Notes: generated from the sequence alone by a model not told the origin. Shown: positions 776 to 30,274, counted from the stretch's first letter. The stretch is 64,000 nt of DNA from Escherichia coli (GCF_016903815.1 NZ_CP069973.1); one strand, 5' to 3'. A program made the numbers and translations.

Positions 776-2317
<1,542 letters not shown>

Positions 2318-2460
2318 TTATAAAAATTGCTAAAATGCTAAACCGGTTTAGGTGTTGATAATAAAGCTGACTTTTTAGCCAAAGCAATTATTTTCGCTAA
2401 ACCGATTTAGTAAATGTGACAGGCACGACAAATCGGGTTACAGATACAACAGCAGGATCA

Positions 2461-3381
2461 CTATTGTGAAGGGAGATCGTGTTGTCGGGGTAAGGCGGTC
2501 ATCGCGCCTTTAGCCGTGGTCGCCAGAGCACCACAAATCTGAGCTTGTACAATGATTCGTTCAAGCTGTCTGGTATTTGTTGGTATTCCAGAATCAGCCA
2601 GACCGGCAAGTAATCCAGCGACAAAAGCATCTCCTGCCCCGGTCGTATCGACGACAGAAACAGGTTTGGCGGGATAGTGGATAAACTGCCCCTGAAAATA
2701 CACAAGTACGCCATTTTTTCCTTGTGTGATAAGCAATAAAGTCAACGAATAACGTTGTACTAATGAATATGCGCCTTGCTGAACCTGGCTTTCGCCACTG
2801 ATGAATAGCAACTCTTCTTCGGACAATTTAGCGATATTCGCCAGCGAAAGTGCGCGATCAAGGTATTTCCTTAATAGCGCTTCACTCTGCCAGAGATCGC
2901 TGCGGATATTGGGATCAAAACTGATGTTTCCGCCAGCCTGACGTATTTTCTCCATAGCCAGAAATGCGGTACTTCGGGAAGGTTCTGCACTGAGCGCAAT
3001 GGAACAAAGATGGAGCCATTCACCCGGCCCAAATGCAGGAAGGCCATCAGGTTGTAAAAAAAGATCGGCACTTGGGCGTACCATAAAGGTAAAGTTTCTT
3101 TCTCCTTGCTCATCAAGTCCTACAGCCACAATTGAGGTGCGATGTTGAGGATCAAGAGACATATAACGTGTATCAACATTTTCTGTACTCAGTGTCTGAT
3201 ACATAAAGCGACCGAAAGGATCATCGCCAACTTTGCCAATAAAGGCACTTTTCCCCCCCAGCCTTGCGATACCGACTGCAACATTAGCAGGCGCCCCGCC
3301 AGGACACTGTAGTAGTCTCCCCTGGCTTTCGGGTAATAAATCAACAACCGCATCACCAAGTACCCATACTCTTGTGCTCAT
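2461..3381 (-). CDS. scrK: Fructokinase (PfkB/ribokinase family)
   Basis: 306-aa ORF MSTRVWVLGDAVVDLLPE... with C-terminal TGAGDAF motif typical of PfkB sugar kinases; first gene of scrK-scrY-scrA. Confidence 0.88.
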   Translation of the reverse strand: MSTRVWVLGDAVVDLLPESQGRLLQCPGGAPANVAVGIARLGGKSAFIGKVGDDPFGRFMYQTLSTENVDTRYMSLDPQHRTSIVAVGLDEQGERNFTFMVRPSADLFLQPDGLPAFGPGEWLHLCSIALSAEPSRSTAFLAMEKIRQAGGNISFDPNIRSDLWQSEALLRKYLDRALSLANIAKLSEEELLFISGESQVQQGAYSLVQRYSLTLLLITQGKNGVLVYFQGQFIHYPAKPVSVVDTTGAGDAFVAGLLAGLADSGIPTNTRQLERIIVQAQICGALATTAKGAMTALPRQHDLPSQ

Positions 3382-3940
3382 AAAGGCTCCAATATACTAA
3401 TTGCTAAACTAATTAAATCGATTTAGCAATTAAAGCATAAACGCTGCTCAGGAGAGAACAATATTCATCAATAGTTACGTGGTATTTTGTTGTGAGAATA
3501 TGTCGGAAATATGGTAAGTGATGAGATAGTCTTCCCCCACCTTCACGACCGCTTTCAATTGCGCCATAGCGAATAAATTTTAACCACAAAAGTAAGAGAA
3601 AGGCCATGATTGAACAGAAAATTACCGACATCGCTCAGGCTAAAACGAACTTTTATCTTTTCAGTATCAATGCTCGTGGCAATCACGCGGGAAAGATCAA
3701 ACTTTCTCACAACCAACTGCTTAACTGGCTGGTATAACAGCCAAAATGACCGTTGCGATGAAGGCTTGCGGGACATCCCATCACTGCCCACAGGAAATAA
3801 GGGAACTCAACTATGATGTAATATTGCATCCAGCACAACATGTTAAATCTTATCAATGGCGTCAGAAAAATGATTATAACAACGCACAGCAATAGCTGAA
3901 ACCTATCAATATAGAACTATACGACTGGTACCAATAAAAA

Positions 3941-3971
3941 GTCTGGACCTACAGAACGTCCAGGCTTTTTT
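3941..3971 (+). terminator. Rho-independent terminator-like hairpin (GTCTGGAC...GTCCAGGC followed by T-run)
   Basis: Inverted repeat with 9-nt loop followed by TTTTTT, seen directly in sequence. Confidence 0.45.
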
Positions 3972-4214
3972 GAAAATGCATCGGTTGATCTCGATGGAAG
4001 GACACAACTGATAGATCATGTTCTTGGACTTCTTACTGAATACGGCATTGTGTTCAGTAAAAGCGCAACAGAATTACGCCCCAAATTACCGGCATTACTT
4101 GAGGATGCGGCGATGCTGTACCTGCGGATTGGTACATGCCGTCTGAACAATATGGCTCCAGAAAAATGGCTGTGAACCGCCCCGGGTTTCCTGGAGAGTG
4201 TTTTATCTGTGAAC

Positions 4215-5105
4215 TCAGGCTGCCAGATCATCGTTTCCGATGGAAGCATAATAAGCTTTTTCTGCTTCTGCCGGAGGAGTATGGCCCAGCCTTCCCAGCA
4301 ATCGTCGATTGTTATACCAGTCCACCCACGTTAGTGTGGCCAGTTCCACTTCTGCACGGTTTTTCCAGCTCTTACGGTGTATTACCTCCGCTTTGTAAAG
4401 ACCATTGATGCTCTCAGCCATCGCGTTGTCATACGAGTCGCCTGTACTCCCTGTTGATGCCAGTAATCCGGCTTCTTTTAGTCGCTCCGTATAGGCCAGT
4501 GACACATACTGAGAGCCTTTATCGCTGTGATGGATGGTGCCAGACGGACGACGGGCCCACAACGCCTGCTCCAGCGCATCCAGCACGAATGTCGTTTCCA
4601 TAGACGATGAGACCCGCCACCCCACGATGTATCCGGCAAACACATCAATGATAAACGCCACATAGACGAAGCCCTGCCATGTGCTGACGTAAGTAAAATC
4701 AGCCACCCACAGCTGGTCAGGTCGTTCTGCCACGAACTGACGGTTTACGCGGTCGCCTGCGGCAACGGCTTTCCGGCTGATGGTCGTACGGACCTTTTTA
4801 CCCCGGAGAACACCGGCAAGTCCCATAACCGCCATGAGACGTGCCACTGTACATCTGGCCACCCTGATTCCTTCCCGTAACAACTGACGCCAGACTTTAC
4901 GCACACCGTACACCTGATGATTTTCATCGTATACGCGCTGTATCTCTCTCTTCAGCCAGTCGTCGTGCTGCGCACGGGCACTGCGTTTATCCGGATGATG
5001 TCGCTGTTGCTGACAATGGTAATACGTTGACGGGGCAATATGCAGTTCGCTGCATACCGGTCCGACCCCGTACTGCTCACGCAGCTTATCCAGCAGTGGC
5101 ATCAT
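4215..5105 (-). CDS. IS629-type transposase OrfB (DDE integrase core)
   Basis: 296-aa ORF with IS3-family DDE catalytic core (e.g. [16 protein letters not shown]). Confidence 0.9.
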
Positions 5106-5428
5106 TTTTTCCAGAGGCGGTCGAACTCCGCCTTCGCAAAATAAGCGGAAGCCTGGCGAAGGATATCGTTACTGCGGCGCAGTTCACGATTTTCACGTTC
5201 CAGCTCTTTCAGACGCTGACGTTCAGCGCTGGTGAGCCCACCATCACCGCCCCCGGTATCCCGCTCATGCTGGCGAACCCAGACACGCAGAGTCTCCGGC
5301 GTACAGCCAATCTTTGGAGCAATGGAACAAATTGCCGCCCACTGTGAGTCATATTCATCCTGACTTTCCAGAACCATACGAATCGCCCGCTGACGGACTT
5401 CGGGGGAAAAACGAGTATTTTTAGTCAT
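5102..5428 (-). CDS. IS629-type transposase OrfA (helix-turn-helix)
   Basis: 108-aa [26 protein letters not shown]...; IS3-family orfA, overlaps orfB for programmed frameshift. Confidence 0.9.
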
Positions 5429-5453
5429 CCTGTTTACCTCTTTCTCAGGGAGT

Positions 5454-8400
5454 TTAGTCTCCAGGATTTCCGGGGCGGTTCAGCTGTTCATTAAAACGTT
5501 GTCCAGGCTGATCATAAAGTGCGCGTAATGTCTCCGCGGATGGCCGCGGTTGCATTTGCTGCATGCAGGGTTTCTGGTGGTAATCAAAATACTGTGGCAG
5601 ATGCTGGATCTCTGCTTTGTTTTCAATTACCCGTTGAAGGGCTCTTTGACGCAACTCTCTTGATGATTTGTCACGGATCGATTCCAATTGTAGCTGGCTG
5701 CCGCTACTAATTCGCTTACGAGCAGCATCAAAATCAAAGCGAATAGCCAATAGACTCGGCGTAGTCTCACTTAGCTGCAATTCCCCTAATTGCACTGATT
5801 CACGCTTATCTTTAATATAAACAATGATCTTATCATCAAGTTCAAAGCTGAGGTCAGCACCGGATTCCGTAGTATATGGGTAGAGTAAGCAACCACTCGG
5901 TGATTCCTGAAAGTCAGTAGAGTCGATGTTGACTATATCTCGTAGGTCTACTTCTGTATCAGATAATGCCTGCCATAACTCAATTGGGCTTGACTCACTA
6001 CTATCGAAGTCATCTTCATCCATCTCTTGATTAGGATTAGCTCGCTCAATGATGGCATCAATTACTGGCTCGAGGTTAAACAGTAGTTCAATAAAAGTAT
6101 TACGCTGATTAAGTGAGCCACGTTGTAATGAAAGTTGAGTATTAATTTTAGCCTGGGAATATTTACCAGCCTTTATACTTTCTTCGATCGATAATCCTTT
6201 TTCATACACTATTCTATTAATAGTGCGATTATCAGGATCTAAGTCTATCAATAGCCGCTCTCCTAGGCCAGTGATGTAACAACGCAATTCATGCGCAAAG
6301 CGTGGGTTAGATGACCAGTTACATTGAAAATAATAGATCCCATCATTTTGTTCTAGAAGCTTCACTTCTTGCGGCCAATCATCTGTGCCCCAGCAAACAG
6401 GAATTACCTTATCCTGTGACTCAGACGCCACAACTTGATTAATCTCAGCTTGTTCCGGTGCTCGAATTGACTGCAGCAAAGGATCGAGCGCGATAGGTAT
6501 ACCGTCAACGGTTTGTTTTGCGCGTTCTAGCTCAGCCTGCACCAGTACTGGCATATCTTCACTAAATAGCTCCTCCACCATACGATATACTGCAAAGCAA
6601 TCTCGCCCAAAAGCATCAGTACTTTCGGGATTCTCTGGCTGGTAGCGATTATCTGCAGTTAATTCATCACTGAATTCAAGCAATCCAATCAGAGTAATTA
6701 CTGTCTGCTCCCCGACTTGTACCAGCAGTTTCTCTGGGCAAAGATCTCCATGAGGTAACTGCTTTTCATGAAAAGCATGAATGGTGTTGATCAACTTTTC
6801 CGCAATTGTAAAACGTTGGGATTGTACTAACACGTTCTCAGCAATAAACTGTGACCACGGTAGGCCATCCACATACTCGCTCACTACATACAAGCCGCCT
6901 TGTCCTAATAGTCCATAGGACTGCACCTTAGGAGTTGGCAGATTTATATGCGTAAGCTTATCGATCCGTTGCTTAAAAGCGTGGATACGGCGGTTAACAC
7001 CAGGTTGTTGAGGGGTCAAAATAACACCATCCCACAATTTTACCTGCAGAGCTTTCCCACCTTGTTCACAGTGATAACTGATGCTGCCAGTCGTAGCAAT
7101 AGCAGCAAGAGCAGAGTAAACCATAGACAACTGTTCAGGAAGTGGAGGAAACTCAATTAACACACCAACGCTGTTCATCCCTTCGCGAAAGAATTTGTTT
7201 TGCTTTAATTCTTGATAAATCTGGTTAGCTTCATCAAATTCTTGGCTATGTTCCTTAGTAGCTGCATTAAACTCATTGAGCATTATGTCCGCACGTGGAA
7301 AGCGTTTACTTGGCTCAAGGTTAAGAGCTTGCTCAAACCAGCTATTTAGAATACCGCTAAAAGGATCAGTTAATGGAGCTCTCCATTCAGGCATCTGTCC
7401 AGGAGTCAGTAATGATTCACCTGCAAAACAAATACGATAAGCAATTACAGCCAACATGAATACATCTAGGCGATAGGGCTCAACTGCTTCTTCAAAAGCA
7501 TCTTCGGGCAAAATATATGGAGCACTTTGCAATGTCGGACGCAATGACTCTAGGCTATTATGTCCCTCCAGTGAGGCTGCGCCAAAGCCAGTAACGACAA
7601 TGCTCTTCTGATCCCCTGCGTACCATAGATTGTGCGGGTCAATATCACAATGACTGATACCCAAGCTATGTAATTCCGAGAATGGAGCTAATAATGCACG
7701 AACGCGATCAATACGCTCAGATTTACTCCATCCGTCAGCTTCGCTATCTAGAATCTCATCTAATCGGCTAAAACTACGGCGTAACTCATACAGCTCACGG
7801 GCATCATCAGTTATATCCTCCTCGGATAGTTCCCTTACAGCACGCAACATATAATCCTGCATAGTTGCGCTGCCATGACGAACTAGGCGACCGACTCGAG
7901 TCTCACGCAGAGCTATCTCAGCCCACAATGTTTGCATTGCGTTTGCTACACCCAAGGCATCAAAGTTCCACTGCCGTAGCAGACCTCTGTGTTGACTATT
8001 GTCTTTGTGGGTAGCCCTGAATTCGTTGTAGACCATGTGAGGGTGACTAAAGAATGGCTTATCGTTCGCAAGATAACCGCTTTCTTTTAGTGGCAAAGGC
8101 CTGACTTTTGGTCCTTCAAAGAAGGACTTAATTATAGGTAATGCCTCATCAGAATTTGGTCGAGGCTTTCCCCCTTCAAAAAGATGAAAAAAGTTAGTGT
8201 GTTGCACCAGCTTTTCGTAATTTTTTGGGTTACCTATAGTCAAGAATTCATCACGGGTATGAACATAGCGCCTCTCACTTAATGGCAAGTTTTCAGGACC
8301 AGCTGTGCCACACAGCACTACATGAGCCTCAACATGCAAAAAGTAACCCAGCTTACGAGATAACTCTTCCTGCAACAAATCTTTTAGTCGCAGTGCATGC

Positions 8401-8678
8401 TCACGCTTGATCTGATAGGGACTTTTGCCTCGTGACTTACCATTTTGCAGCCACTTCCCCCCTTCAAATGTGATGTTACCATTCCACTCTTTAAGCTCGA
8501 CTAATAGCAGACGGTCAGCAGTAATAATTAGCATATCGATTTCCATCGACCCTTGGCTATCAGTAACAACTAAGCCAGCATAGCCAAACCAACTATCTGG
8601 TAACTGCTTAACCATCATATCAACTGTTTTGGTTTCGCTGCGGTGCAGGCCAGCACCACCTACTATCTGATACTTCAC
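5454..8678 (-). CDS. Large uncharacterized protein: N-terminal NERD-like nuclease-related domain followed by two protein-kinase-like domains and a ~370-aa C-terminal region; native 3' end replaced by IS629 sequence
   Basis: 1074-aa ORF; NERD-like motif [22 protein letters not shown]; kinase catalytic-loop-like motifs [11 protein letters not shown]...GFG and [11 protein letters not shown]; last 9 codons (LNRPGNPGD) are encoded by the IS629 inverted repeat. Confidence 0.7.
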
Positions 8679-8888
8679 GTTTTCTCCTGCACCACTAAAT
8701 TTTTGTTGGTGGTAGTCCAGTAAAAATGGATGTAGTTATCTAAGACAGCGCATAGATTGTGCCTGCCTAACCCTAAAAAGTGTAATTATGAAAAGTAACG
8801 CTAGAAATTCTATACCGTTCGCAAAGAGAACACTTTTCAAAGATATATCATCATCTTGAACATGTCACTATAATGGTGAATCCATAAG

Positions 8889-9050
8889 ATGCGAACACCA
8901 CATCTTGTGCCACTCAGCAAACAGGCTGTAGCCATACTGATAAAACTTCAGACATGGGCAGTTGAAAATGGTCTGGTCTTTACGGGAGCACATGACCCGC
9001 GTAAACCAATCAGCGAAAACACCGTAAATAAGGCCCTTAGGTGCCCTTGA
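8889..9050 (+). pseudogene. Tyrosine-recombinase (P4-type integrase) C-terminal fragment
   Basis: Translation MRTPHLVPLSKQAVAILIKLQTWAVENGLVFTGAHDPRKPISENTVNKALRCP resembles an integrase catalytic-domain segment; only 53 codons. Confidence 0.5.
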
Positions 9051-9145
9051 ACCACTATATCCAGACAGCCGTTGAGCTTAAGTTAACGTTACCGAGTGAC
9101 GTTGATATTCCCTCGGTGAGAGATAACCAAGGCACCATGAGGATG

Positions 9146-9773
9146 CTATTCGTTATAGTGTTCGAACGCCTCCGCAAGGTTTTTTACTGCCGTTAACACG
9201 TCCGGTTTAGGTATGATACTGATGTAATCGCTCTTCATCGTTTTCACGAACCGTTCTCTCATTCCATTACTCTGAGGGCTACTGACTGCCGTCGTGCAGA
9301 GCTCCAGATTCAACTCTCTGGCGAACTGCCGTGTTTCATGAGTTGTATAAGCCGAACCGTTATCGGTCAGCCACTGGATGGGCCATCCCGGTCTATCGCC
9401 AAAGCGTTTTTCTATCGCTCCTGACATGACATCCTGCACCGTTGCTTTGCCATAACCTCCCGTGCTTGCGGCCCAGTCTATGGATTCAAGATCGCAACAG
9501 TCCAGTGCGAACGTGACACGCAGTTTTTCGTCATCATCACAACCGAACTCAAAGCCATCGGCACACCAGCGCGGGTCGCTTTCCTTCACCGATATTCGGG
9601 CCTTTATGTTCCCTCTGCGGTCGTGAAGGTTTGTCATGTAATAACAACAGGTTATTCTCGCTCATTATTCGATAAACGCGATTTGCATTCACGAACTGCA
9701 GTCCTTCGTTAAGACTGCCGTCTGAGAATAGCCCGGACACGACGATAGCCATCGAATCGCTGAACAGCGTCAT
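9146..9773 (-). pseudogene. IS3-family transposase orfB remnant (frameshifted, truncated)
   Basis: Two overlapping minus-strand ORFs (9146-9637, 9549-9773) with integrase-core-like sequence (e.g. [20 protein letters not shown]); no orfA or inverted repeats. Confidence 0.6.
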
Positions 9774-9879
9774 TCGGCAGGCGATAAAGAAGGTGTCGTT
9801 ACGGGGAAGTCATCTTCACAGAGATTTTCAGTCAGTTAGCATTACCGACATTCATTCACCAACTTACCGGAGATAATCA

Positions 9880-10209
9880 ATGTCAAAACCCCGATGGACC
9901 ATTGAACAGAAAAGGCAGCACGTTGCTGCCTGGCGCGCCAGTGGTCTTACACGTCAGCAATACTGTGAACTCAACGATATTCCCTTCACATCACTTCGCG
10001 AATGGCCGCAGGATGTCGCAAAAGCTGAACGCCGGGCAAATGAACCGACCGTTCTTCCCGTTCATATTGCGCCACCACTGCATGCTGATGTACCACAGCC
10101 CGTCACGAATGAGCCAGTCACGCTCTTCCTTCCCGGCGGAGTACGGATGTGCTGTCAGCCGTCACAACTTACCGATGTCTTCAGGGCGCTCAAATATGCT
10201 CAGTCCTGA
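9880..10209 (+). CDS. IS66-family TnpA-like small protein
   Basis: 109-aa ORF immediately upstream of and overlapping tnpB. Confidence 0.55.
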   Translation: MSKPRWTIEQKRQHVAAWRASGLTRQQYCELNDIPFTSLREWPQDVAKAERRANEPTVLPVHIAPPLHADVPQPVTNEPVTLFLPGGVRMCCQPSQLTDVFRALKYAQS

Positions 10210-10588
10210 TAATGTCTTCATCGCGATTAAACCTGTTGACATGCGCCGGGGCATCGACACACTGACGCAGTATATACAGGATGAACTCCGGTCGACATGG
10301 CATGAGGGAGCCGCCTTCGTCTTTGTTAACAAAGTCCGTTCGCGTATCAAAGTTCTCCGGTGGGATAAACACGGGGTGTGGTTGTGTACCCGCCGTCTGC
10401 ACAAAGGCAGCTTCCGCTGGCCACGTGCAAATGATGCTGCCTGGCACCTAACTCCCGACGAGTTTAACTGGCTGATTGCCGGTGTTGACTGGCAGCAGGT
10501 TAAGGGACATGACCTGACGAAATGGGGCTGGCAGAATGAACCTGAACTGCGCCCTGAAAACACGCAAAATACACTGCTAACTCAGTGA
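10196..10588 (+). CDS. IS66-family accessory protein TnpB (Orf2)
   Basis: MLSPDNVFIAIKPVDMRRGIDTLTQYIQDELR... matches the IS66 Orf2 pattern; ATG at 10196 is in frame within the longer 9902-10588 ORF. Confidence 0.8.
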   Translation: MLSPDNVFIAIKPVDMRRGIDTLTQYIQDELRSTWHEGAAFVFVNKVRSRIKVLRWDKHGVWLCTRRLHKGSFRWPRANDAAWHLTPDEFNWLIAGVDWQQVKGHDLTKWGWQNEPELRPENTQNTLLTQ

Positions 10589-10594
10589 AAAATA

Positions 10595-11472
10595 ATGAAT
10601 ATCCGTATCTGGAGTGGTATACTCCCCTGTATGGATATCTCCGCTCTCAACACCACGAATGACATCGAAAAACTGCGTGCTATGGCACTTACCATGGTAC
10701 AAAAAGTCATGTCGGAGAATGCCGAAAAAGAGCGGGAATTACTGGAGAAAAGCCGGCGCATCCAGCTTCTGGAAGAAATGCTGAAACTGGTTCGTCAACA
10801 GCGCTTCGGTAAAAAATGTGAAACGCTGGCTGGTATGCAACGCTCCCTGTTCGAAGAGGATGTTGATGTCGATATCGCCGCGCTTACCGCACATCTGGAT
10901 AAACTGCTCCCGCAATCCCCTGAAGAAGACGAAAAAGCGTCCCGTTCACGCCCGATACGCAAACCCTTACCGGCTCATCTTCCACGGGTGGAAAAAATTA
11001 TCCAGCCGGACACTGACCATTGCCCTGAATGTGACGAGCCGCTGCACTATATCCGTGATGCGGTGAGTGAAAAGCTGGAGTATATTCCCGTTCACTTCGT
11101 GGTGAACCGTTATGTCCGTCCGCAATACAGTTGTTCCTGTTGCCAGAAGGTGTTCAGCGGTGAAATGCCGGCACATATCCTCCCGAAAAGTGCCGTTGAG
11201 CCATCAGTCATCGCACAGGTGATCATCAATAAATACGGTGACCACCTGCCTCTGTATCGCCAGCAACAGGTCTTTGCCCGTTCAGTGTCGGGCTGCCCGT
11301 CAGTTCGATGGCTGACATGGTTGGCGCGGCGGGTGCCGCATTATCTCCCCTGGCGGCGTTACTCCATCGCGAGTTGATAAACCGTCCGGTGGTGCATGCA
11401 GATGAGACTACCCTGAAGATCCTGAACACTAAGAAAGGCGGTAAATCCTGCTCCGGTTATCTGTGGGCAACC
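10595..11472 (+). pseudogene. IS66-family transposase TnpC, frameshifted and truncated
   Basis: N-terminal leucine-zipper-like region and zinc-finger motif CPECDEPL...CSCC; continuation ADETTLKILNTKKGGKSCSGYLWA lies in another frame (11308 onward). Confidence 0.75.
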
Positions 11473-12274
11473 AGCCTTCCGCCTCGTCCGGATCCGCTGT
11501 TTCCAGTGTCATCAGGAGCCGGCTGCATGCTTCCCCTGCCGTTTTACCCAGCGTGGCCCGCTGCGAAAGACGGATGCGGTTTCCGGCACCCAGCCCACTG
11601 CGGTTATCGATATGGACCTTAACCGGATCGGGTTCGGTGATAAGTGCGCGGGTATCCGGTGCCAGCAGACTCACCAGAGCCCGGATGCCTTCAGCATTGC
11701 GGGTGGGTAATCGCATGGCACCCAGTAAGGCCAGGAAACGGGAAACCGGCGTTGCCACCTGTTCAGCGGTGCCGGGTATACCGAGTCCGACCAGTCCCAG
11801 CAGACACTGCGATGTGGCATCGCGCCCCCCCTCCTCGAAAGTGGCCGGATACGCATATTTTCGCCAGATCCGGTAGTACTGGGTGGTGATGCGGTGGCTG
11901 AAAATATCCAGAAATGAGGTGAGCGCCTCATGTCCTTCACGGCGCTGCGCAATATCATCCAGCCAGGACGTCGGCAGAGGTGAGTCCACCCCATACATTC
12001 CGAGAAATGTCGTGCGGATCGTTGGGGGTAATGTCGGACGGTCTTCGTCGATCTCCACCGCTTTCAGGGTGCTGACCGGGAATCCCATCCCGGGCCAGGG
12101 CCTGAATCGCACCGGGTCATCGCCCGGATGGCTGGTCGTGCCCAGTTTTGGCCCGTCCGGATTTTCCAGCTCCAGCAGCTGGCAGAAACGATAAAAACTG
12201 GCCCGCCAGATATCGTTGTTAAGGGCCAGGGCCTGCGTCAGCCCGGTACGTGCTGGCTGTGATTCTCTTTTCAT
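11429..12274 (-). CDS. tssG: Type VI secretion baseplate protein TssG, C-terminally truncated at the IS66 junction
   Basis: 281-aa ORF with TssG-like segments (FYRFCQLLELENPDGPKLGT, PVRFRPWPGMGFP, FLDIFSHRITTQYYRIWRKY); 3' end overlaps IS66-derived sequence. Confidence 0.7.
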   Translation of the reverse strand: MKRESQPARTGLTQALALNNDIWRASFYRFCQLLELENPDGPKLGTTSHPGDDPVRFRPWPGMGFPVSTLKAVEIDEDRPTLPPTIRTTFLGMYGVDSPLPTSWLDDIAQRREGHEALTSFLDIFSHRITTQYYRIWRKYAYPATFEEGGRDATSQCLLGLVGLGIPGTAEQVATPVSRFLALLGAMRLPTRNAEGIRALVSLLAPDTRALITEPDPVKVHIDNRSGLGAGNRIRLSQRATLGKTAGEACSRLLMTLETADPDEAEGWLPTDNRSRIYRLS

Positions 12275-13929
12275 CTCAGTCGTTTCCCTGTGGGTTGCAG
12301 TACCAGTGTGAGCTGGTTGAAAAGGTGAACATCAGCATAGAGCGCAAAGAAACGGTGCAGCATCTCCCCGAAGAGATTCACATCGCCCTCGCCGGCAAAA
12401 TTATCCATATTCAGCGTGACCTCAATGTCCACGCCACGGAGCATAAAGCCCTTTTCAAAACGGCGGATCAGGGTGTGCTTCACAGCAACGATGGCTTCAA
12501 GCCGGCGGCGGTTCATTTCATCGTCGGTCCAGTCATAGAGCGCCAGCGTCCCCCGCAGCACCTCCGGATTGTCCATCATGCTGAGAAAGTTTGATCCGAG
12601 GTGACTCATCACCCGCCAGTGAAACCGGTCATTTGCCGGGGGATACAGTGGCATCGTCGGTGCGGTCAGGTTCAGGACTCTGACGGGGACTTTGCCGGTT
12701 TTGACCACCCTGTCCAGGAGCGTACTTTCCAGCGCCCTGCGCGGAAGCTGCCCGTTGGTCGCGGTGATTCGCATCGAGAGGGACTCCGGTTTATCGGACA
12801 ACTGCTCCAGCTCGAACGAACGCCCCCCGAGAACTAACCATGTGTCATACAGGCCGGAGGGTCCCCGTTTCACACGGGTGTGGTAATAACGTTCAGGAGC
12901 ATCGTGGCGCATCATACCGCCCCGGTGCCGGAAGCTGGTGAACGGGACATAAGGGTGTCTGCCGTTCTTCACCGAGCCGTGAATGTTATCGACGCTGTAA
13001 ATTTCGGTGTGACCATCCTGAAGACGCAGCGGCCTGAGCAGGTACTCGTTATCCAGCGGGTTAAGGATCAGCGGGTCGGCTTCCAGGGTAAAGAGATTGA
13101 TAACCGGCGCACAGTGCAGGCGGAAGTTTTCTGTCTCAAAAGGCAAACCGGATGACCAGGCTTCACTGAGCACAATGTCGATTTCAAACCAGGTACTGGC
13201 CGCAGTGAGCCCAATGGTGTCGAGGCCGCGCAGTTCAACAAACATAAACTTCGGACGGAAGCTGAAATACTCCAGCAGCAACTGGTAACCACTGAAGGCT
13301 GTATCAGCTTTCTTCCACAGGCAGTCATTGTCGTCAAAGCCCATGGGTCTGCACCAGCCGTCAAACTGACGACGTCCGGTATATGTCCCGGCATGACGCG
13401 CATACATGGCATGTACACGCCGGGTCATTGCCAGATGTAGCGCAGCACTTACCGGCGCCTCTGCGTTAAGAAAAATGGCGACTTTGTCGATCCCGGCTTT
13501 ACTCCAGTCCACTTTTTCAGGGCATTCGAAGCGCAGACGGATAGCAGAGCGGCCATCGGATTCAGTATGGAGACGGGCATCTGCAAGGTGCAGCGGTTGT
13601 AGCAACACATCGCGGGTCGCCCGGTACTGGCAGGCGGTTTTATGCGGCCCGACAGGACGGGACAGAACGGAAAAGCCTTCAGCCAGTATTTCGGCCTGAC
13701 GCAGACTACGCCAGTCAGGCGAGAACTCAACGATGGCCAGCGACGGGATAGTCCGCATATAGTGCGGCCACAGCAGACTCACCAGACCTTCGGTGAGCTC
13801 CGGCAGGTCATCATCCAGCTTTTCACGCAAACGTCCCATCAGGAAGGCAAAGCCTTCAAACAGACGTTCCACACTGGGATCGCAGGCACCAGGCTTATCC
13901 AGATTCAGCATTGCTGACGTAATCCACAT
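12271..13929 (-). CDS. tssF: Type VI secretion baseplate protein TssF (N-terminal region possibly disrupted)
   Basis: 552-aa ORF with TssF-like N-terminal motif DPSVERLFEGFAFLMGRLREKL; a further TssF-like piece lies in another frame at 13895-14116. Confidence 0.7.
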   Translation of the reverse strand: MWITSAMLNLDKPGACDPSVERLFEGFAFLMGRLREKLDDDLPELTEGLVSLLWPHYMRTIPSLAIVEFSPDWRSLRQAEILAEGFSVLSRPVGPHKTACQYRATRDVLLQPLHLADARLHTESDGRSAIRLRFECPEKVDWSKAGIDKVAIFLNAEAPVSAALHLAMTRRVHAMYARHAGTYTGRRQFDGWCRPMGFDDNDCLWKKADTAFSGYQLLLEYFSFRPKFMFVELRGLDTIGLTAASTWFEIDIVLSEAWSSGLPFETENFRLHCAPVINLFTLEADPLILNPLDNEYLLRPLRLQDGHTEIYSVDNIHGSVKNGRHPYVPFTSFRHRGGMMRHDAPERYYHTRVKRGPSGLYDTWLVLGGRSFELEQLSDKPESLSMRITATNGQLPRRALESTLLDRVVKTGKVPVRVLNLTAPTMPLYPPANDRFHWRVMSHLGSNFLSMMDNPEVLRGTLALYDWTDDEMNRRRLEAIVAVKHTLIRRFEKGFMLRGVDIEVTLNMDNFAGEGDVNLFGEMLHRFFALYADVHLFNQLTLVLQPTGKRLR

Positions 13930-14936
13930 TCAACAGTGCAATACGCAACCGTTCTTCCGGCCCTGCCTCTGTCTGCCGGCACTCATCCAGGACATCCTGC
14001 CATTGCCGGCGAAGACGGGGCGATTCATTCAGTTCTGTAAAACAGTATTTATCCGCCAGATAATCAATTCGTGTACGCATACTGAAAAGAATTCCGTATA
14101 AAGATTCAGCAGACAAAACTTTATCAGTCTGTAAAAATTAACGGAAGAGTCGATATTTCTCCCGGTCATCACCGGATGATTGTTGCAATAACCAGTGGCA
14201 TCAGAGACTGAACAGCCGTTTTTAACGCAACGTATTGCTCTGATGTATCAGGCCGGGTAACCCGAAAACACCTTTCCACCCGACATTGTCCGCCCGTATC
14301 CATCCCCCGCCAGGTCTGCTGCAGTAAATCCACCACTTGCGAACATTGTTCATCAACTGTGACACTGGCTCGCGGGTGACAAATACTCGTCTGGCTGAGC
14401 AGCAACAGGCATCGCATTGTTGCTCCTCCATGTTGTTCCCGCAACCAGCGTAATACCACCGGCGATGATGGACTGGTCGTGTGATTACGCTCAGTAATAC
14501 GTTCATAAAAGGAAGTACAGAATGCATGAATCTGTTGCCCGTTGATGTTTCCTTCTGCCGAATGGAGCGTGAAGTGAAATGCCAGCAGACGCGGCCAGTG
14601 GTCCACCCCCTGCTGAACAAAACGCCGGATTTCCCCCGGCGCTGAAAGTAAGGCTTCGGTTATTTGCACTATTTTACCCCTGTGAATTTTGTTAAGCCGG
14701 TGCAGACACACGGAAAACGCACATCAACACCAGCACAGTACGATACAAACACCAGTGACTGACGGGACGAAAGGAATAACGAATCAGTCAGGAAAGAGCT
14801 ACAACCTGCTGGCTGACCGGAGAGGGTCAGCAGGAAAATGAACGGTAATGTCGCCAGCACCAGGGACAGAGCTGATTTCCGCAATACCAGCGCCGGCATT
14901 TTGCACATTGCCAGCGTACCGGCATCACAACTCGTT

Positions 14937-15170
14937 TCATGCTGCTCCTCGTGATTCCTCAATTCGCTGCTGCATCCACTGCTCTACTTCACTTTTGTAC
15001 CAGCGGCTGCTGCGCCCCAGTTTGATGGGTTTAGGGAAATGGCCTTCACTGATCAGCTTGTAAAACCATTTGTCGGTCATACCAGTGAAGCTGGTGATGT
15101 AGTTCATGTCGATCAGGGGATCGTCGGCACGCAGCAATACGCTGTCGTGACCTGTCATTGAGGTCAACAT
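14937..15170 (-). CDS. alpA: AlpA-family phage regulatory protein (DNA-binding)
   Basis: 77-aa ORF, ...FTGMTDKWFYKLISEGHFPKPIKLGRSSRWYKSEVEQWM matches the AlpA helix-turn-helix pattern. Confidence 0.75.
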   Translation of the reverse strand: MLTSMTGHDSVLLRADDPLIDMNYITSFTGMTDKWFYKLISEGHFPKPIKLGRSSRWYKSEVEQWMQQRIEESRGAA

Positions 15171-15238
15171 GGTCAGAATGTCCTCTGTGAGATTTATGAA
15201 TGTTGGGCAAATGCGGGTGAATCTGCTGAGCTGAGCTT

Positions 15239-15841
15239 TCAGAGCTGGCCTGCTACGGGATACCAGGGATTACCGGCGAGGTAACGGGCTTCCGGATCGC
15301 GCACACCACGACGATCGCGGGCGAAATCACTGAACGCCCATATCAGCTCTTTGAGTCTCTCTTCGCAGTCCGGTGAACAACTGTCCAGCACCACATCCCG
15401 GGTGATCTGCTTCTGGTACGGTGCTGCTTCACCCGGTGATGCGAAGCCCAGTACGTTGCTCCAGGCATCCAGAATCAGCCGATCCAGTTCAGGGCCGTCG
15501 AAATACTCCTGTCTGACGCACAGCACCACGTGGTATTCCGGTTTTTCAGGATGACGTGTCAGGAGCCAGCAGAGGTCACGTCCGGGTGTTGCATTCATCA
15601 GCGCACTGACGGTTTCGATAAAGGCCATACCGAACCAGGTTTTTCTGTCGCTGAAGATGTTGCCATGTTCCCCCGGCAGACGAAGCAGGATCCGCCGTAT
15701 TCGGGAGCAGGACTGCTCGCGCAACACACGGTTGAGAACGCCGATGATTTTGTTCTGATAAGATGGCCAGAAGGGGGCCAGGCTATAGTCGAAATAAGGG
15801 ATAGCATTCATAAGATATGCTCCGTTATGCGCAGCCCACAA
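15239..15841 (-). CDS. YagK/YfjJ-family (inovirus Gp2-like) protein
   Basis: 200-aa ORF; family assignment from recollection of E. coli cryptic-prophage YagK/YfjJ proteins. Confidence 0.55.
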   Translation of the reverse strand: MWAAHNGAYLMNAIPYFDYSLAPFWPSYQNKIIGVLNRVLREQSCSRIRRILLRLPGEHGNIFSDRKTWFGMAFIETVSALMNATPGRDLCWLLTRHPEKPEYHVVLCVRQEYFDGPELDRLILDAWSNVLGFASPGEAAPYQKQITRDVVLDSCSPDCEERLKELIWAFSDFARDRRGVRDPEARYLAGNPWYPVAGQL

Positions 15842-16068
15842 TGCGTCCTGCCCGTGAATAAGCTGACGTGTTATGGTTTGCGGATGGGGTTGATGGAATA
15901 AGTGAAGAACCGGGGCAGAACGGGAAGATCAGGTCACCGACAAGGGACAGAACACCGGATGTGGTTCAGAGTGAATGATCTCCGTTGACTTCAGTTCACA
16001 TCATTAAGCAAGGCGGTAAGGTTTTACCGACGGAATGTTTCCAGGACAGGAAGCTCAGGATTTAAGCT

Positions 16069-16635
16069 TCAGAAGTGAGGCTTACGAGGACGCCCTGCAG
16101 CAGGTCGTTCAGGAACTTCACTGCAACCGTATGCGCACAGTCCGTCTTTTTGCTCTTCTTTCGCCAGATAATGCAGGACACCGCGAATATTATCGATGCT
16201 CCCGGGATCGTTATGACGCACGGGAATGTTGATGTTGTATGTATAATGCGGCTGATATGTACAGCGGTGTGCCGAACCGCTGTTATGCGTAATAGACTGC
16301 CAGCATTCCGTAATCCGCTCCGCAAAGGGATATATTTTTTTAACCCTCTGACGATCGAGCCAGAAAACCGCATGCGCATGAAAACCATGATCAGCCGTCC
16401 ATTCAATCACCCAGAAGAAACCAACGATATTTTCAAATTGTTCCACCTGCTCCAGCAGCATACGCAACTGCAATTCAAGCCAGCGATGATCAGGTTGTAA
16501 GAAATCAGGCGTATCTTTCCTGTAGAAGAAATCCATGCGTAAGGCCCGCAGGCGGGAATAGCGTGCGACCAACTGATTGATGTGATTGTCAAGTAAAGCG
16601 GTAAAAAACCAGTTTGGTGTGTAAGATTTAGGCAT
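16069..16635 (-). CDS. YagK/YfjJ-family (inovirus Gp2-like) protein, paralog
   Basis: 188-aa ORF sharing motifs with the 15239-15841 and 19308-20039 ORFs (e.g. HAHAVFWLDRQ vs HYHVILLLNKD). Confidence 0.55.
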   Translation of the reverse strand: MPKSYTPNWFFTALLDNHINQLVARYSRLRALRMDFFYRKDTPDFLQPDHRWLELQLRMLLEQVEQFENIVGFFWVIEWTADHGFHAHAVFWLDRQRVKKIYPFAERITECWQSITHNSGSAHRCTYQPHYTYNINIPVRHNDPGSIDNIRGVLHYLAKEEQKDGLCAYGCSEVPERPAAGRPRKPHF

Positions 16636-18128
16636 GCTGATGACTCCTGAAAGTTAATGACGTTTTAAGTGCTGTAAACGAATTAATGCTTTCGCTCATA
16701 ATCAGATCTAAAACGGTAATAACTTACAGACGGTATTTATCAGGCATGCTGTAACAGAATGGATACGTCGGTTATTAACGACACACAGCGTTGTGCTGAA
16801 GGGTATGAGTTATCTGATGGCATTGTCTATAGAGATGAGATAAACGAGGTGCGAAGAAAATACAGATTCAATACAACACAGTGAAATACAGAAAAATACG
16901 AACTGTAATCCCGCTGCCAGGCGGTTAGGAAACATATTACAACTATAAGCTCATGGTTTGTAAATTTGCTCTCAGTGAGTCTGAAAAAACGTTTATAAGG
17001 TCACCACAATAAACTCACACGCGCTTATTCAATCTGTTCTCCAGGATATGAACGTTAACGACACACGATAGCATAAGACAACATACAATGGATGAATAAT
17101 TTTCACCCAGTACCTTAAACAATACAACCGGCAACAAATATAATCAGAAATTCACTCTGTTAATTCTGTTGTTTATCCTGCGCTGTTAAACATGACGGAA
17201 CCATGGATACCTTATCAAAGAGTAAGCATTCAGTTAATCAGTAATGACAGAGAAATTGATGTTCACCAGAATAGTTAAAACACTTCAGATAAACAATCAT
17301 TGTTAAGCAAATACGGTTCATAATGGATAAATTAGAATCAATTACTGTTTTACTGAAGATGAGAATAGATGAATATCAACAATAGCGTAGTAGAGAATAA
17401 CTTACCTGAACATCATATGAGTTACAGTAGTTATGATTGAGGGATGGAGTGAATACGATAACAAGAGTAATACTAATGGAATGTGTAAAGATTGAGAGTG
17501 AGTGAAGACAGGAAGTAAATAACAATAGAGATTGTATGAAAAAGGGAGTGAATAAAGAATATATAAAGAATAAATATAATTATAGTAATAAACCTAAATT
17601 AAAATCATCCTTGTTTGATGAGTAAAAATAATTCTAGAAAATGAATCTGTCTGAAAACTCTTTCTCAGAGATTAACCGATCAGATGCTCAACGGACTCAA
17701 TAAATTGGCTGAGTCAGGTTACCTCATCCACACTCTATTTGTTTCTAGAAGGATCTACCATTTTGTTCATCTACCGGAACACATCAATTTAGTAACTCGA
17801 TAATATCGGTTATGTAGATATTTATCGTTGCTACCAATGCCTAGATTATTATTCTCCAAGTATTTTCTTGACTTACAGGCTAATTTTGAAACAAATGTCA
17901 TGCTATTTTAGGAAAAGAACCTATGCAAAAGTCTGCTATGAGCGAGGAGCAGATATTCATCTGGTATACAAAGACAATATCGCTTAAGTCATCAGTGCTG
18001 CCACTTTAACCACTAGCTCTGCTCTTTTTGGACTTTTGAGCTAAAAATTAAATCTGACAGTGTGATAAGGTGCAAGTTTCTGAAAATACGCCAGTTGTTT
18101 TACACTCAAAAGCCCCCATTACTATCTG

Positions 18129-18884
18129 ATGTTAATGGCGCAGCAGTTATCTTTCAGATTATTAAGGGGAAACAAGAGTATGGCAAGATGTACAGCTCCT
18201 GTACGTGGACATAGCTCAGCAGCAGCTGCTGCTGCCTGTCCCGCATGTCGTAATCGCAGTGGTTATCGCCGCAGTAGCTACAGTTATGATAGTTACCCTT
18301 CTTACTCATCAGGCTCTAGCGGTGGCGGAAGTTATGGAGGCAGTAGCGGTGGTTCCAGCAGCAGCGCGAAGCCACGTTGGTCAAAATCAGGGTCTTCCGT
18401 TTCTTACACAACAGCCCAAGTACAATCACTCACACCAATTCGACAAGCGGTAGAGAAACTTGCCATTGAGCAACCTGATCTGCGTGATGTCTTTCTTTGC
18501 CATGCTTGGGATGACCGACAAGGTATTGCCAAAGAGTTACACGATTTGCTCGAAGCGGCAGGTGTCAAAGTATGGTTCAGCGAAAAGGATCTTGCCCTTG
18601 GTGTTCCGATGATGCGTGCCATTGATAAAGGATTAGCAAACTCTCGAATCGGCTTGGTTTTAGTGACACCTGCATTGTTAAACCGTCTTCCTAAAGAAGG
18701 CGTTGCTGATAAAGAACTTTCCGCCTTACTGGCAGGCAACCAACTCGTTCCCATCGTGCATAACACGACGTATGAAGCTCTCCGTAATGTCAGTCCTTTG
18801 CTTGCATCCCGAAGCGGCCTCGACACGGGAGAAGATACATTGGCAGTTGTTGCAACAAAAATTGCAGAGCTGATCACTGTTTAG
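18129..18884 (+). CDS. TIR-domain protein with Ser/Gly/Tyr-rich low-complexity N-terminal region
   Basis: C-terminal ~140 aa DVFLCHAWDDRQGIAKELHDLLEAAGVKVWFSEKDLALGVPMMRAIDKGLANSRIGLVLVTPALL fits the TIR pattern; start codon uncertain (18129, 18135 or 18180). Confidence 0.75.
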   Translation: MLMAQQLSFRLLRGNKSMARCTAPVRGHSSAAAAAACPACRNRSGYRRSSYSYDSYPSYSSGSSGGGSYGGSSGGSSSSAKPRWSKSGSSVSYTTAQVQSLTPIRQAVEKLAIEQPDLRDVFLCHAWDDRQGIAKELHDLLEAAGVKVWFSEKDLALGVPMMRAIDKGLANSRIGLVLVTPALLNRLPKEGVADKELSALLAGNQLVPIVHNTTYEALRNVSPLLASRSGLDTGEDTLAVVATKIAELITV

Positions 18885-19307
18885 TTTATCCAAGCCACCG
18901 TTAAATATTTCCAGCTCATGAATCTGGTCTGCTATTGCAGGCCAGATATCAGTCAATACTGAAAGGTTTGACCTGCTCCCCGTTGATTAACATAGACTGA
19001 TATAGCAACTTCCGCTTTTGGCACAAAGCAGACCATGAGAAGATAGACGCTATAACATTTGAGTCCTACCAATCGATCTGTTCATTTCCATAAATGGCAG
19101 TAAATGCAAATAACCAGAACAGCCAGGCGCTTTTCGACTTATGGTCGATGTTGCAAAGAGTGAGGAGTGGAAAGCAAGCGTGCGAACGAAAGTAGATGGC
19201 AATCCATTGCATTACTTCAGGACGACTTTTCAGAAAGCGAGCTAAGGGCGTCAGCCAACGCCCTTACCGTGGCATAAGCTCAGGCACCGGATGCCGTTTT
19301 ACAGGGC

Positions 19308-20039
19308 TCACCTGCCATCCAGTAAACGCCCCGGCCCACGACTGCAACCATAATTACGTTGACCAGAACCGTCATGCTGCTTCGTCTCATACTTCACGAG
19401 ATAACAGGCTCTCTCCATGGCTTTCTGCATCGCTTCCACATCACCACGCTTGACCCAGAGCACAGCGGATCCACCAGATTTTTTGTCAGAAGCTTTCCGG
19501 GTATCAGAACATCCACCCGACAAAGGCGTATCATCGGAAGAAGGGCGAGCATCAGATGATGCCGGTTTACGGAAAGGCGTCCGCCTGGAAAAATGAACCA
19601 GTCCATTACCCTGCCAGGGTTCAAGATGCAGAGCGCTACACCATGCCAGCTTGATCAGCGTCGCCAGCGAAGAAGGAACGGTGAAATCCCCTAGCGAGCA
19701 CCAGGTATCTTTGTTGAGCAGTAATATCACGTGATAATGTTTCCTGCCTTTTTCCTTGCCAAACTCCCGACACCAGAAATAACGCAGAGTGGTTGCACGC
19801 ACACGCTTGTTGGCACGTCGTTTATGTCGCTGGTAAGCCTGAATTTTTGCTTTCAGGGATTCGAAAAAACGAGAAATCACCGCTGAATCCGAATCGGGAT
19901 CCATGATGGTGACAGGCATATACTCAGGGAAACGTAAATCCATCCGGATTAACGAGACGACACGGTGTTGCGCCAGGGCACTGTTGAGAATACTTTCAAA
20001 ACGGGATAACCAGTAAGCATTGTGTATTGGTTGATTCAT
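19308..20039 (-). CDS. YagK/YfjJ-family (inovirus Gp2-like) protein, paralog
   Basis: 243-aa ORF MNQPIHNAYWLSRFESILNSALAQHRVVSLIRMDLRFPEY... parallel to the two other paralogs. Confidence 0.6.
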   Translation of the reverse strand: MNQPIHNAYWLSRFESILNSALAQHRVVSLIRMDLRFPEYMPVTIMDPDSDSAVISRFFESLKAKIQAYQRHKRRANKRVRATTLRYFWCREFGKEKGRKHYHVILLLNKDTWCSLGDFTVPSSLATLIKLAWCSALHLEPWQGNGLVHFSRRTPFRKPASSDARPSSDDTPLSGGCSDTRKASDKKSGGSAVLWVKRGDVEAMQKAMERACYLVKYETKQHDGSGQRNYGCSRGPGRLLDGR

Positions 20040-21682
20040 GATGAGAGATCTCCGTTGATTTGGATTGACTTCACATCATTAATCACCGCGGTAAAACTTT
20101 ACGGCATCCCGCCATTGAGCAACGCCAATGGCTCCTGATTAAAACAGAATGAATCCCCCACGAAGAAAAAATAAACCTACACGCAGAGTAAAACACACAA
20201 CAACGGCATAAATGGTTTTTAAAAACTACAAAGCCTGAAGGGAAACGGATCCACAGAACGTGCAAACAAAACACCAAAAACGCAATCAGAACGCTTTCTG
20301 CTGCTGTGAATCAACAACAATACCAAAACCTACAGCTTAACCACAAAACTCAATCACAGAGCCGAATAGCGTGTTTAAAACCTGTTTACAGATAACCCTG
20401 CCACAAGAACAAAGTTCACCAATATCAGAATCGATTTTCTCATCCTGAAAATGTTACGTTTCACTACACAGCATAAAAACGATTAACTATTGATAACGTA
20501 AACCTCATCTGAATCAAAACACCAGAACCAATCATCACGCTTTTCCTGAAAAGAGCCTTGCGCTGAGAAAAAACACCAGGGTCAGTTAATCATCTCATCA
20601 ATCTCATCGTTACAAAAACATCCATAAAACCATTTAACAAAATCATCGTAAGCACACAGTAAATCACGCCAGGTTATCTCAGCCAAATTTTCGTTTTACA
20701 TAAAGACACTTGTCTCAGGTTAACGACTAAAAACACAAAAACTCAGAAAAGGTTAAACGTAACTTCAGAAAAATAGAATATCATATTGATTGCTTAAACA
20801 GGAAAGATTGTTTTGTAGTAGCATTAAGCTGATTTTAGTTAACGTAAAAACAGGACTGACAGGTTTACTAAACTGGATGTGTATCAGACAAAGCAATGTG
20901 TATAACAATACTTAATGAAAACACTTGTAGAATTGTTTATGAAAATACGTGTATGTCTGGTAAAACACTTAGTAGAAAATACGTGTATAACACTTACTGA
21001 AATGCTTAGTAAAAATACTTAGTAAAATATGTGTAGAATTATCTATTTAAAAAGATATGTATATAACACTTAATAAAAACATGTGTATATAGTATCATAC
21101 CGACATTCTCAACATCTTCAGACTTCCATACATACTGGGTGTTGATTTCTCACTTTTACAGCCAGCATGGAGTTTTCTGTCCTAAAAACAGAGCAGATTT
21201 ACTCTGGAATTATTTTTCTACCCCCGTATTTCAGGCCCCAGAAAAGACAATCCGAAGCAAACCGTTTGTCAGCCTCCATATCATCTTTTACCCCCGGAAA
21301 GTGATCGCGTTTACAACCAGAATGACAGCCATACTGATTATGTCGTCTCCCGGCCCCCTTCACATATAACATGCATGTCTGTCATTGCTTACTGCTCCAC
21401 ATGACCGGATTTCACATACAGGATGCACATTCAGTGTTTTTATCGCTACTATAACAGACAGATTACTGTCGTCTTTACTCTTCAGATTGTTAATCTGACC
21501 ACAAGAACAGCCGAACGGCAAAACGCCCTCCACAAGGGGCACATGAACCATAGTTGATAGCATGTTTTTCCTAATCAAGGAATAGTTCAGGAATATTTTA
21601 TTGCATTAATAACTGGCGAATAATCGTTCTGTGAACACAAAATGCTTTTATTTGTAAATTTTATTGCATTGCACTCGTTTTA

Positions 21683-30237: not shown

Positions 30238-30259
30238 TTCGATTCCGAGTCCGGCACCA
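30238..30259 (+). repeat. Partial tRNA-Phe 3' end (TTCGATTCCGAGTCCGGCACCA), island-boundary att-type direct repeat
   Basis: Matches the 3' end of E. coli tRNA-Phe (GGTTCGATTCCGAGTCCGGGCACCA) with one G missing; no complete tRNA upstream. Confidence 0.75.
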
Positions 30260-30274
30260 CTAATTCTTAAGAAC

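Follow-up and report, generated by a model that had tools for sequence, protein, structure and literature searches.

The integrase and transposase pieces that lie between a gene with NERD and kinase domains and an IS66-family remnant raise the question of whether they once belonged to the element that brought in the neighboring gene, or have another history. In the window (the whole stretch of Escherichia coli DNA analyzed here, 64,000 nucleotides of NZ_CP069973.1), these pieces occupy positions 8886–9792, and the stretch is ordinary genetic wreckage within an E. coli genomic island at the tRNA-Phe gene pheV. We consider it probable (roughly 0.72) that the block is debris without function, lying at the fossil border of two genomic islands in tandem at pheV, the site most likely marking the former start of a second island with a type VI secretion system (T6SS). 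The features on which the argument draws are the following:

4173–5482, minus strand: complete IS629/IS1203 copy of 1310 bp with OrfA and OrfB ORFs, abutting the truncated mkoA
5454–8678, minus strand: truncated mkoA (Pfam NERD and Pkinase), preliminarily described as a NERD/kinase gene
8679–8885, no strand: mkoA upstream region of 207 bp, ending at the putative deletion junction J1
8886–9041, plus strand: internal fragment (codons 277–328 of 421) of a P4-type tyrosine integrase gene of the pheV/pheU class, a pseudogene
9042–9752, minus strand: 3' 711 bp of an IS2-group element of the IS3 family (IS positions 613–1329)
9753–9792, plus strand: internal fragment of the transposase gene of ISEc39 (IS256 family), with homology from 9737
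9793–11469, plus strand: 5' 1677 bp of ISEc49 (IS66 family), 98.3% identical to complete ISEc49
11465–13916, minus strand: tssG'-tssF' remnant, with both sides truncated, from a T6SS cluster (Pfam TssG and TssF)
30238–30262, plus strand: attR-like direct repeat of the tRNA-Phe 3' end, TTCGATTCCGAGTCCGG-CACCA (found by BLAST and reading)

The block is shared, in identical form, by about 70 of 5,426 complete E. coli genomes, and a 1.2-kb segment around it (8680–9880) showed 100% identity in about 60 complete genomes and at least 80% coverage in 68. Its integrase and IS pieces are already known, as RefSeq flags both as pseudogenes: the PGAP labels in the identical copies are a partial "tyrosine-type recombinase/integrase" and a frameshifted "DDE-type integrase/transposase", followed by an IS66-family tnpA. 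When compared to the chromosome of strain 2779 (NZ_CP103521.1), the window was found to be 99.99–100% identical, save for 6.9 kb missing from the window. Strain 2779 carries tRNA-Phe and an intact 420-aa integrase, oriented like the window fragment, ~21 kb upstream, and because of this near-identical strain the window, in which no tRNA gene was found, can be placed in a pheV island. Three ORFs are present in the block (8889–9050, plus strand, 53 aa; 9146–9637, minus strand, 163 aa; 9549–9773, minus strand, 74 aa). An Rfam scan of 4000–12500 returned the ALIL frameshift pseudoknot of the IS629 copy (5031–5147, 121 bits) and no other structured RNA, and consensus scans for promoters and terminators gave a few weak matches, with five promoter-like hexamer pairs against 1.9 expected.

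Integrase and insertion-sequence fragments in the block

At the DNA level, integrase homology is confined to 8886–9041 (156 nt). The best intact relative is the pheV integrase of TL012, which adjoins tRNA-Phe and shares 148 of the 156 nucleotides (94.9%, E = 7e-67); the fragment is in frame with the 421-codon gene, with 48 of 52 amino acids identical and four differing. About 3,200 complete E. coli genomes have a counterpart of 90–95% nucleotide identity, which is annotated beside tRNA-Phe as a tyrosine recombinase. The 53-aa ORF was too short for a Pfam match, and DNA comparison and NCBIfam were needed to classify it; it aligned to positions 275–326 of 413 of the NCBIfam profile PRK09692 (E = 7.7e-6), with a score far under the 434-bit full-length cut-off, as expected for 52 amino acids. 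The preliminary description had presented this piece as a 53-codon C-terminal integrase fragment. The integrase homology stands, but the fragment is internal, the last 93 codons of the gene (its 3' end) being absent; the ATG of the ORF corresponds to Met278, and its closing two codons and stop (CP*) are supplied by the adjacent IS.

In a full-length relative, the Arm-DNA-bind_3 domain spans residues 3–88, Phage_int_M 98–192 and Phage_integrase 209–383. The motif positions R238 (FIR238), H341-x-x-R344, H368 and Y378, which from motif inspection and general knowledge of tyrosine recombinases we take to be the catalytic set, all lie outside the fragment. The fragment is homologous to the P4-type island integrases (CP4-57 and pheV/pheU) and shares with them 92–95% nucleotide identity, the reading frame and the orientation relative to pheV. 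It differs from them in having neither the arm- and core-binding domains nor the R-H-x-x-R-H/W-Y active-site positions of a complete three-domain enzyme, and in lying away from any tDNA or att site at an island edge. Only 144 of 156 nucleotides are shared with the intact pheV integrase resident in strain 2779, and the fragment is therefore a distinct allele, not a recent duplicate of the resident gene. This allele, recognizable by the peptides ...AILIKLQTWAVENGLVF... and AILIKLQTWAVENGLVFTGAHDPRK, was not found intact in any sampled genome, the best intact match remaining at 94.9%.

Directly against the integrase sequence, and tail to tail with it (back to back, as already noted for the two pieces), lies the IS2-group remnant. 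It is 88% identical to the 717 bp at the 3' end of an intact IS of 1329 bp carried by plasmid NZ_CP027324.1, 84% identical to ISEc48 and ~71% identical to IS2 itself. Among annotated elements, the remnant comes closest to one labeled only "IS3 family transposase", without a name of its own (88%), and to ISEc48 (84%), and it was assigned to neither since both identities fall below 90%. The 163-aa ORF matched Pfam rve (4.3e-15) and rve_3 (7.5e-8) as well as the NCBIfam family "IS2 transposase TnpB" (2.2e-69), scoring 234 bits against a 597-bit cut-off there because it is a partial protein; in a by-eye alignment to intact orfB, it retains the three rve-fold positions D, D and E. The rve core of a DDE transposase is accordingly present. 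Absent are IS positions 1–612, comprising orfA, the site of the −1 programmed frameshift that joins orfA and orfB, and the 5' part of orfB. Alignment to the intact IS revealed four small deletions, of 1 bp after 9074, 1 bp after 9128, 3 bp after 9393 and 2 bp after 9711, as well as one extra base (+1) at 9598 and a stop codon at 9146–9148. The damage to orfB amounts to three frameshifting indels, an in-frame loss of 3 bp and this stop. The earlier assignment as a frameshifted IS3-family orfB remnant is borne out by the rve (4e-15) and IS2 TnpB (2e-69) matches together with the indels and stop.

The absence of inverted repeats, also part of the preliminary description, held in that no pair was found around the debris beyond short chance-level pairs. 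It failed in that the orfB-proximal terminal inverted repeat is kept, from 9042 to ~9082, beginning with TGCCC. This repeat, TGCCCTTGAACCACTATATCCAGACAG...CTTAAG, is similar to the two ends of the plasmid IS and to those of ISEc48; its partner was not found, and in place of two terminal repeats (TG...CA) with a target-site duplication the remnant has a single one. Like ISEc48 and the IS of NZ_CP027324.1 (an IncK2/Z plasmid), the remnant has a TnpB-type rve domain and a terminal repeat of the form TGCCC...CCAGACAG...CTTAAG, and it differs from them in comprising only the 3' 53%, with one end and a broken orfB. The intact plasmid IS is itself flanked by a 16–17 bp direct repeat, ATTATTCATATCAGTG[T] (2484–2500 and 3830–3846 of the plasmid locus L005), which is much longer than the target duplications of 3–5 bp expected for the IS3 family.

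To the right, 9737–9792 matches ISEc39 in 54 of 56 positions, at 2501–2556 inside its transposase CDS (1516–2712 of locus L007). This piece of 40–56 bp, bordered by the IS2-group remnant on one side and by the left end of ISEc49 on the other, has no RefSeq annotation and comprises neither a whole IS256-family transposase gene nor terminal repeats. The right end of the interval had been counted with the IS3-family debris, which needs correction, as 9753–9773 belongs to the ISEc39 transposase gene. The adjoining ISEc49 remnant has an intact left end, tnpA and tnpB ORFs, and a tnpC that is truncated and frameshifted, stopping at IS position 1681 of ~2.5 kb. Only N-terminal domains of the IS66 transposase were found (Pfam), and with the right end absent, the full set of tnpA, tnpB, tnpC and both terminal repeats of an IS66-family element is lacking. 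For the integrase piece and the orfB piece alike, similarity to integrases and transposases is far beyond chance.

Flanking genes and the distal att repeat

The left neighbor proved to be a broken defense gene. In the Mokosh type I system, MkoA combines a serine/threonine kinase with an Upf1-like helicase, and helicase ATP-binding mutants are reported to be without defense (Millman et al. 2022, preprint, 10.1101/2022.05.11.491447). Strain 222 encodes a full-length gene of 1652 codons followed by a 515-codon gene (region 5494–11999 of locus L001), which PADLOC identified as MkoA (E = 0, profile positions 2–1598 of 1607) and MkoB (1e-61), respectively; the full MkoA carries AAA_11/AAA_12 (Upf1-like helicase) at residues 1062–1609. 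In comparison, the window ORF of 1074 codons corresponds to approximately the first 1065 of the 1652 codons plus ~9 read from the IS629 end, and covers MkoA profile positions 2–1030 of 1607 only. Identity between the window and strain 222 is 100% from 5483 onward. At this point strain 222 has an extra 3.47 kb that the window lacks; this DNA, adjoining IS629 in the window, comprises mkoB and the helicase part of mkoA. The pairs of strains 222 and AW1.7 match MkoA and MkoB, share the kinase and Upf1-like helicase architecture, and represent complete Mokosh type I systems. The window copy differs in that the helicase domain and MkoB are deleted, so that the type I combination of MkoA kinase and helicase with the MkoB nuclease is not present there.

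This mkoA is carried by 71 of the 5,426 genomes, most of which have kept the full pair of 1652 and 515 aa, and in 70 of the 71 it is fused to the integrase fragment. The exception is AW1.7, where an intact mkoA-mkoB pair (95% nucleotide identity) lies in the variable cargo region of a CP4-57-like island at ssrA, next to a Qat defense system and just upstream of the GTPase-through-CbtA distal module, which is conserved. Positions 8600–8888 of the window are 91% identical to the DNA upstream of mkoA in AW1.7. The suggestion that the NERD/kinase gene was once cargo of an integrative element is supported by this location of mkoA, the homology to which stops at 8888. The integrase of the AW1.7 ssrA island (7002–9579 of locus L011) is itself split by IS2, which parallels the IS2-group insertion in the window integrase.

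For the IS629 copy beside mkoA, the annotation in the identical strain 2779 reads "IS3-like element IS1203 family transposase", and the copy has the ends TGAACCGCCCCGGG...CCCGGGGCGGTTCA. Alignment to strain 2779 (11777–21310 of locus L004) placed the missing 6.9 kb between two IS1203 copies; in strain 2779, this segment holds a regulator, a sugar isomerase, RidA, an MFS transporter and IS66/IS1203 fragments. The comparison is consistent with the window IS629 being the one copy that would remain after homologous recombination between two IS1203 copies. The window also has one additional codon relative to strain 2779 somewhere in 4173–8886. In strain 222 (1819–5279 of locus L001), an IS3-family element beside mkoB is ~90–93% identical to the window IS629 and has a group II intron (ltrA) inside.

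To the right of the debris follow the tssG'-tssF' remnant, a CP4-like module and the pheV 3'-end repeat. The tssGF sequence is 97.7–97.9% identical at the nucleotide level to an intact cluster in the E. coli draft genome GCA_050049215.1. Outside the complete genomes that share the block, the best tssFG match among those listed was ~71%, and a protein search found full-length TssF at 99% in E. coli draft assemblies, with the intact cluster in a few drafts. The gene order in GCA_050049215.1 is nupG-speC-yqgA-(pheV)-integrase-MkoC-like protein-sulfatase-OMP-H-NS-...-T6SS (including tssG and tssF). In the orientation of the window, this reads integrase on the plus strand followed by tssG and tssF on the minus strand, identical in order and orientation to the window. 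The distance from integrase codon 329 to the retained part of tssG is 19.7 kb in GCA_050049215.1, and the window instead has 2.43 kb of IS debris. The T6SS-island integrase of this draft genome was considered as the fragment's own allele and rejected at 92.3% identity. Likewise, the OMP/H-NS genes in the pheV-proximal module of strain 2779 were rejected as those of the T6SS island, the two modules being only 82% identical (against 97.7% for tssGF), and the strain 2779 module therefore comes from a different island.

Further right, 13904–16054 is 92% identical to a set of genes in CP057031.1 (207 aa, UCP030791, AlpA, 190 aa and YfjJ) that directly flank the tssB end of such a T6SS cluster, and a second internal deletion of ~27 kb would therefore join tssF to these flank genes. 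The array is closed by the repeat at 30238–30262, ~21 kb right of the fragment, which matches the pheV 3' end in 22 of 23 positions with one G missing and lies directly ahead of the IS110 remnant and the kps capsule genes. It is the distal att boundary of the composite pheV island. Among the pathogenicity islands of E. coli, those at pheV that carry kps capsule genes are classic examples (PMC7545054). A mismatch-only scan with substrings of the tRNA 3' end returned nothing; such a scan is blind to indels and missed the repeat at 30238. Att-like repeats flanking 5454–9050, proposed earlier as a sign of a separate element, were not found in the window with BLAST at word size 7 (tRNA-Phe/integrase region), the sole pheV-type repeat being that at 30238–30262.

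Junctions and the tandem-island model

Seven junctions were found between 5482 and 13916, in agreement with the repeated insertion and deletion proposed at the outset. Two of them, 9041|9042 and 9792|9793, are clean IS ends. Judged from the joined sequences, the former is shown to be a simple IS insertion into the integrase gene at codon 328/329, and the latter an insertion of ISEc49 into a copy of ISEc39, since the left end of ISEc49 starts cleanly at 9793. Others have overlaps: J1, between the mkoA upstream region and the integrase, has a 3-bp overlap (AAG, 8886–8888); J3, between the IS2-group remnant and ISEc39, has a 16-nt overlap (ACACGACGATAGCCAT, 9737–9752, with 14 of 16 positions in ISEc39); the junction of ISEc49 and tssG has a 5-bp overlap (GGGCA, 11465–11469); and the right edge of tssF' has an overlap of TG at ~13915–13916. 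Such overlap junctions, three in the block and one at 13916 with 2–16 bp of microhomology, are typical of illegitimate deletion, which they would appear to record.

The most suitable reading of the fragment at 8886–9041 is that it was the integrase, now dead, of a T6SS island located downstream and joined in tandem to an upstream one. In this reconstruction, two pheV islands would have stood in tandem, A proximal and B distal. Island A would have comprised the intact integrase ~21 kb left of the window, sucrose (scr) genes and Mokosh type I, and island B would have resembled the ~65-kb T6SS-bearing island and would end at the att repeat at 30238. The integrase gene of island B was struck by the IS2-group element, and ISEc49 entered a copy of ISEc39. 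Microhomology-mediated deletion may then have joined the IS2-group orfB to ISEc39. Another deletion would have joined ISEc49 to tssG, at a loss of ~19.7 kb from the 3' end of the integrase through half of the T6SS cluster, and a further one would have taken ~27 kb more of that cluster. The deletion joining the mkoA upstream region to integrase codon 277 would have removed the distal module of island A, together with the internal att site and integrase codons 1–276. We infer these four deletions, in no set order, from the junction sequences and the intact relatives, and the former distal module of island A and the internal att repeat are likewise presumed. With its own integrase and left att site lost, island B would have become one fused, degraded island with A.

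This reconstruction is well supported but not proven. Because neither the internal att repeat nor the greater part of the second integrase survives, the tandem origin is deduced from collinearity with the intact relative, and because the fragment shares only 92.3% identity with the integrase of the intact island, the link between the fragment and the T6SS is drawn from order and orientation, not from allele identity. None of the sampled genomes showed an intermediate, be it an unbroken copy of the allele, a copy with the complete IS2-group element still in it, or a pheV repeat in the interior; in all ~70 carriers, the junctions are already in their final form. That islands accumulate in tandem at tDNAs, with later deletion, has been described (PMC4891358, citing Pavlovic et al. 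2004). With that process, as in the asn tDNA islands of Klebsiella pneumoniae, the present case shares two integrase alleles of the same class in the same orientation at one tDNA, a terminal att repeat, and IS elements at module borders, and it differs in having lost the internal att repeat and the bulk of the second integrase.

Truncated integrases and IS fragments are routine in tDNA-associated islands of E. coli, and the locus matters little beyond annotation, where three corrections were gained: the integrase fragment is internal, the interval contains a third IS fragment, and the NERD/kinase gene is a broken Mokosh defense gene. Together with the intact relative, the debris permits a reconstruction in which ~47 kb of a T6SS island would have been erased by a few microhomology-mediated deletions, a worked example of island accretion and decay with no new mechanism. 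It is conceivable, if rather doubtful, that the resident integrase could excise or move the fused unit of A and B by recombining pheV with the degenerate repeat at 30238–30262. Were the fused unit mobile, the debris would represent a step toward a larger composite mobile island, beyond mere decay.

Alternative origins of the debris

The main rival to the tandem model is that the integrase and IS debris was imported already scrambled from another island or replicon, through homologous or IS-mediated recombination into a single pheV island. Islands at pheV are mosaics that exchange modules (PMC7545054), and abundant IS copies nearby could mediate such exchange; the lack of intermediates among the sampled genomes and a fragment allele that matches intact integrases at 94.9% at best would also fit. 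We nevertheless regard an import as unlikely, given that the order and orientation equal the integrase-...-tssG-tssF arrangement of the intact pheV T6SS island, that the fragment is of the pheV class and oriented as the resident integrase, and that a pheV att repeat closes the array downstream. Furthermore, the integrase–IS junction was seen only together with the mkoA junction, and plasmids carried nothing beyond the IS part.

A second reading, already disfavored and in our judgment improbable, holds that the fragment is what remains of the integrase that brought mkoA, with mkoA as cargo of its element, as the preliminary description would have tied them. The two are adjacent, 207 bp apart, and mkoAB of AW1.7 is island cargo beside the backbone of an island with a P4-type integrase. 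In all pheV and ssrA islands examined, however, the integrase is transcribed from the tRNA side into the island. With the fragment on the plus strand, its att site and 5' end would therefore lie to the left and the island body to the right; mkoA, on the left, is on the wrong side to be its cargo, and the fragment points away from it. The homology of the mkoA region to AW1.7 moreover stops at a 3-bp microhomology junction and not at an att site, no att-like repeat was found left of 8886 in the window, and the upstream neighbor of mkoA in AW1.7 is the GTPase/distal module and not an integrase.

Weakest is the idea that part of the debris is functional, be it as the 53-aa peptide, as a domesticated 163-aa DDE protein, or as a promoter or regulatory element acting on mkoA or on the IS66 genes. 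In its favor are the rve residues D, D and E kept, by eye, in the 163-aa ORF, the excess of promoter-like hexamer pairs (5 vs 1.9 expected) and the 100% conservation among ~60 genomes. Against it, the integrase piece is without its Arg, His-x-x-Arg, His and Tyr motif positions; the IS remnant is ~12% diverged from the nearest intact IS and, besides its three frameshifting indels and stop, has lost all of orfA together with the frameshift site, the N-terminus of orfB and one of its ends; no Rfam family matched within the block; and the flanks are as identical among the carriers as the block itself, by which the identity reflects recent common descent and not selection. Such a role is highly improbable. 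A working protein from anything in 8886–9792, with a function for any part, is very unlikely.

Some further observations concern the genes of the composite island and its relatives. Outside E. coli, TssF relatives at 93–95% amino acid identity were found in Enterobacter and Klebsiella. The contexts of the distal genes in FEX669 and Br_54_kylling are mosaics that neither back nor contradict the tandem model. Within the window, a TIR-domain gene (18129–18884) matches the Thoeris ThsB profile (PADLOC, 3.6e-128) and represents an orphan or partner-less defense gene: by eye, no ORF of at least 40 aa in 16640–18130 resembled thsA, and the 1.5 kb upstream of the gene held no ORF of at least 50 aa. 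In GCA_050049215.1, the gene adjacent to the integrase (11609–15124 of locus L020) encodes a 1171-aa protein with AAA_11/AAA_12 and PLDc_2 domains, the architecture of Mokosh type II (MkoC-like), and different Mokosh types therefore sit in the pheV islands of different strains.
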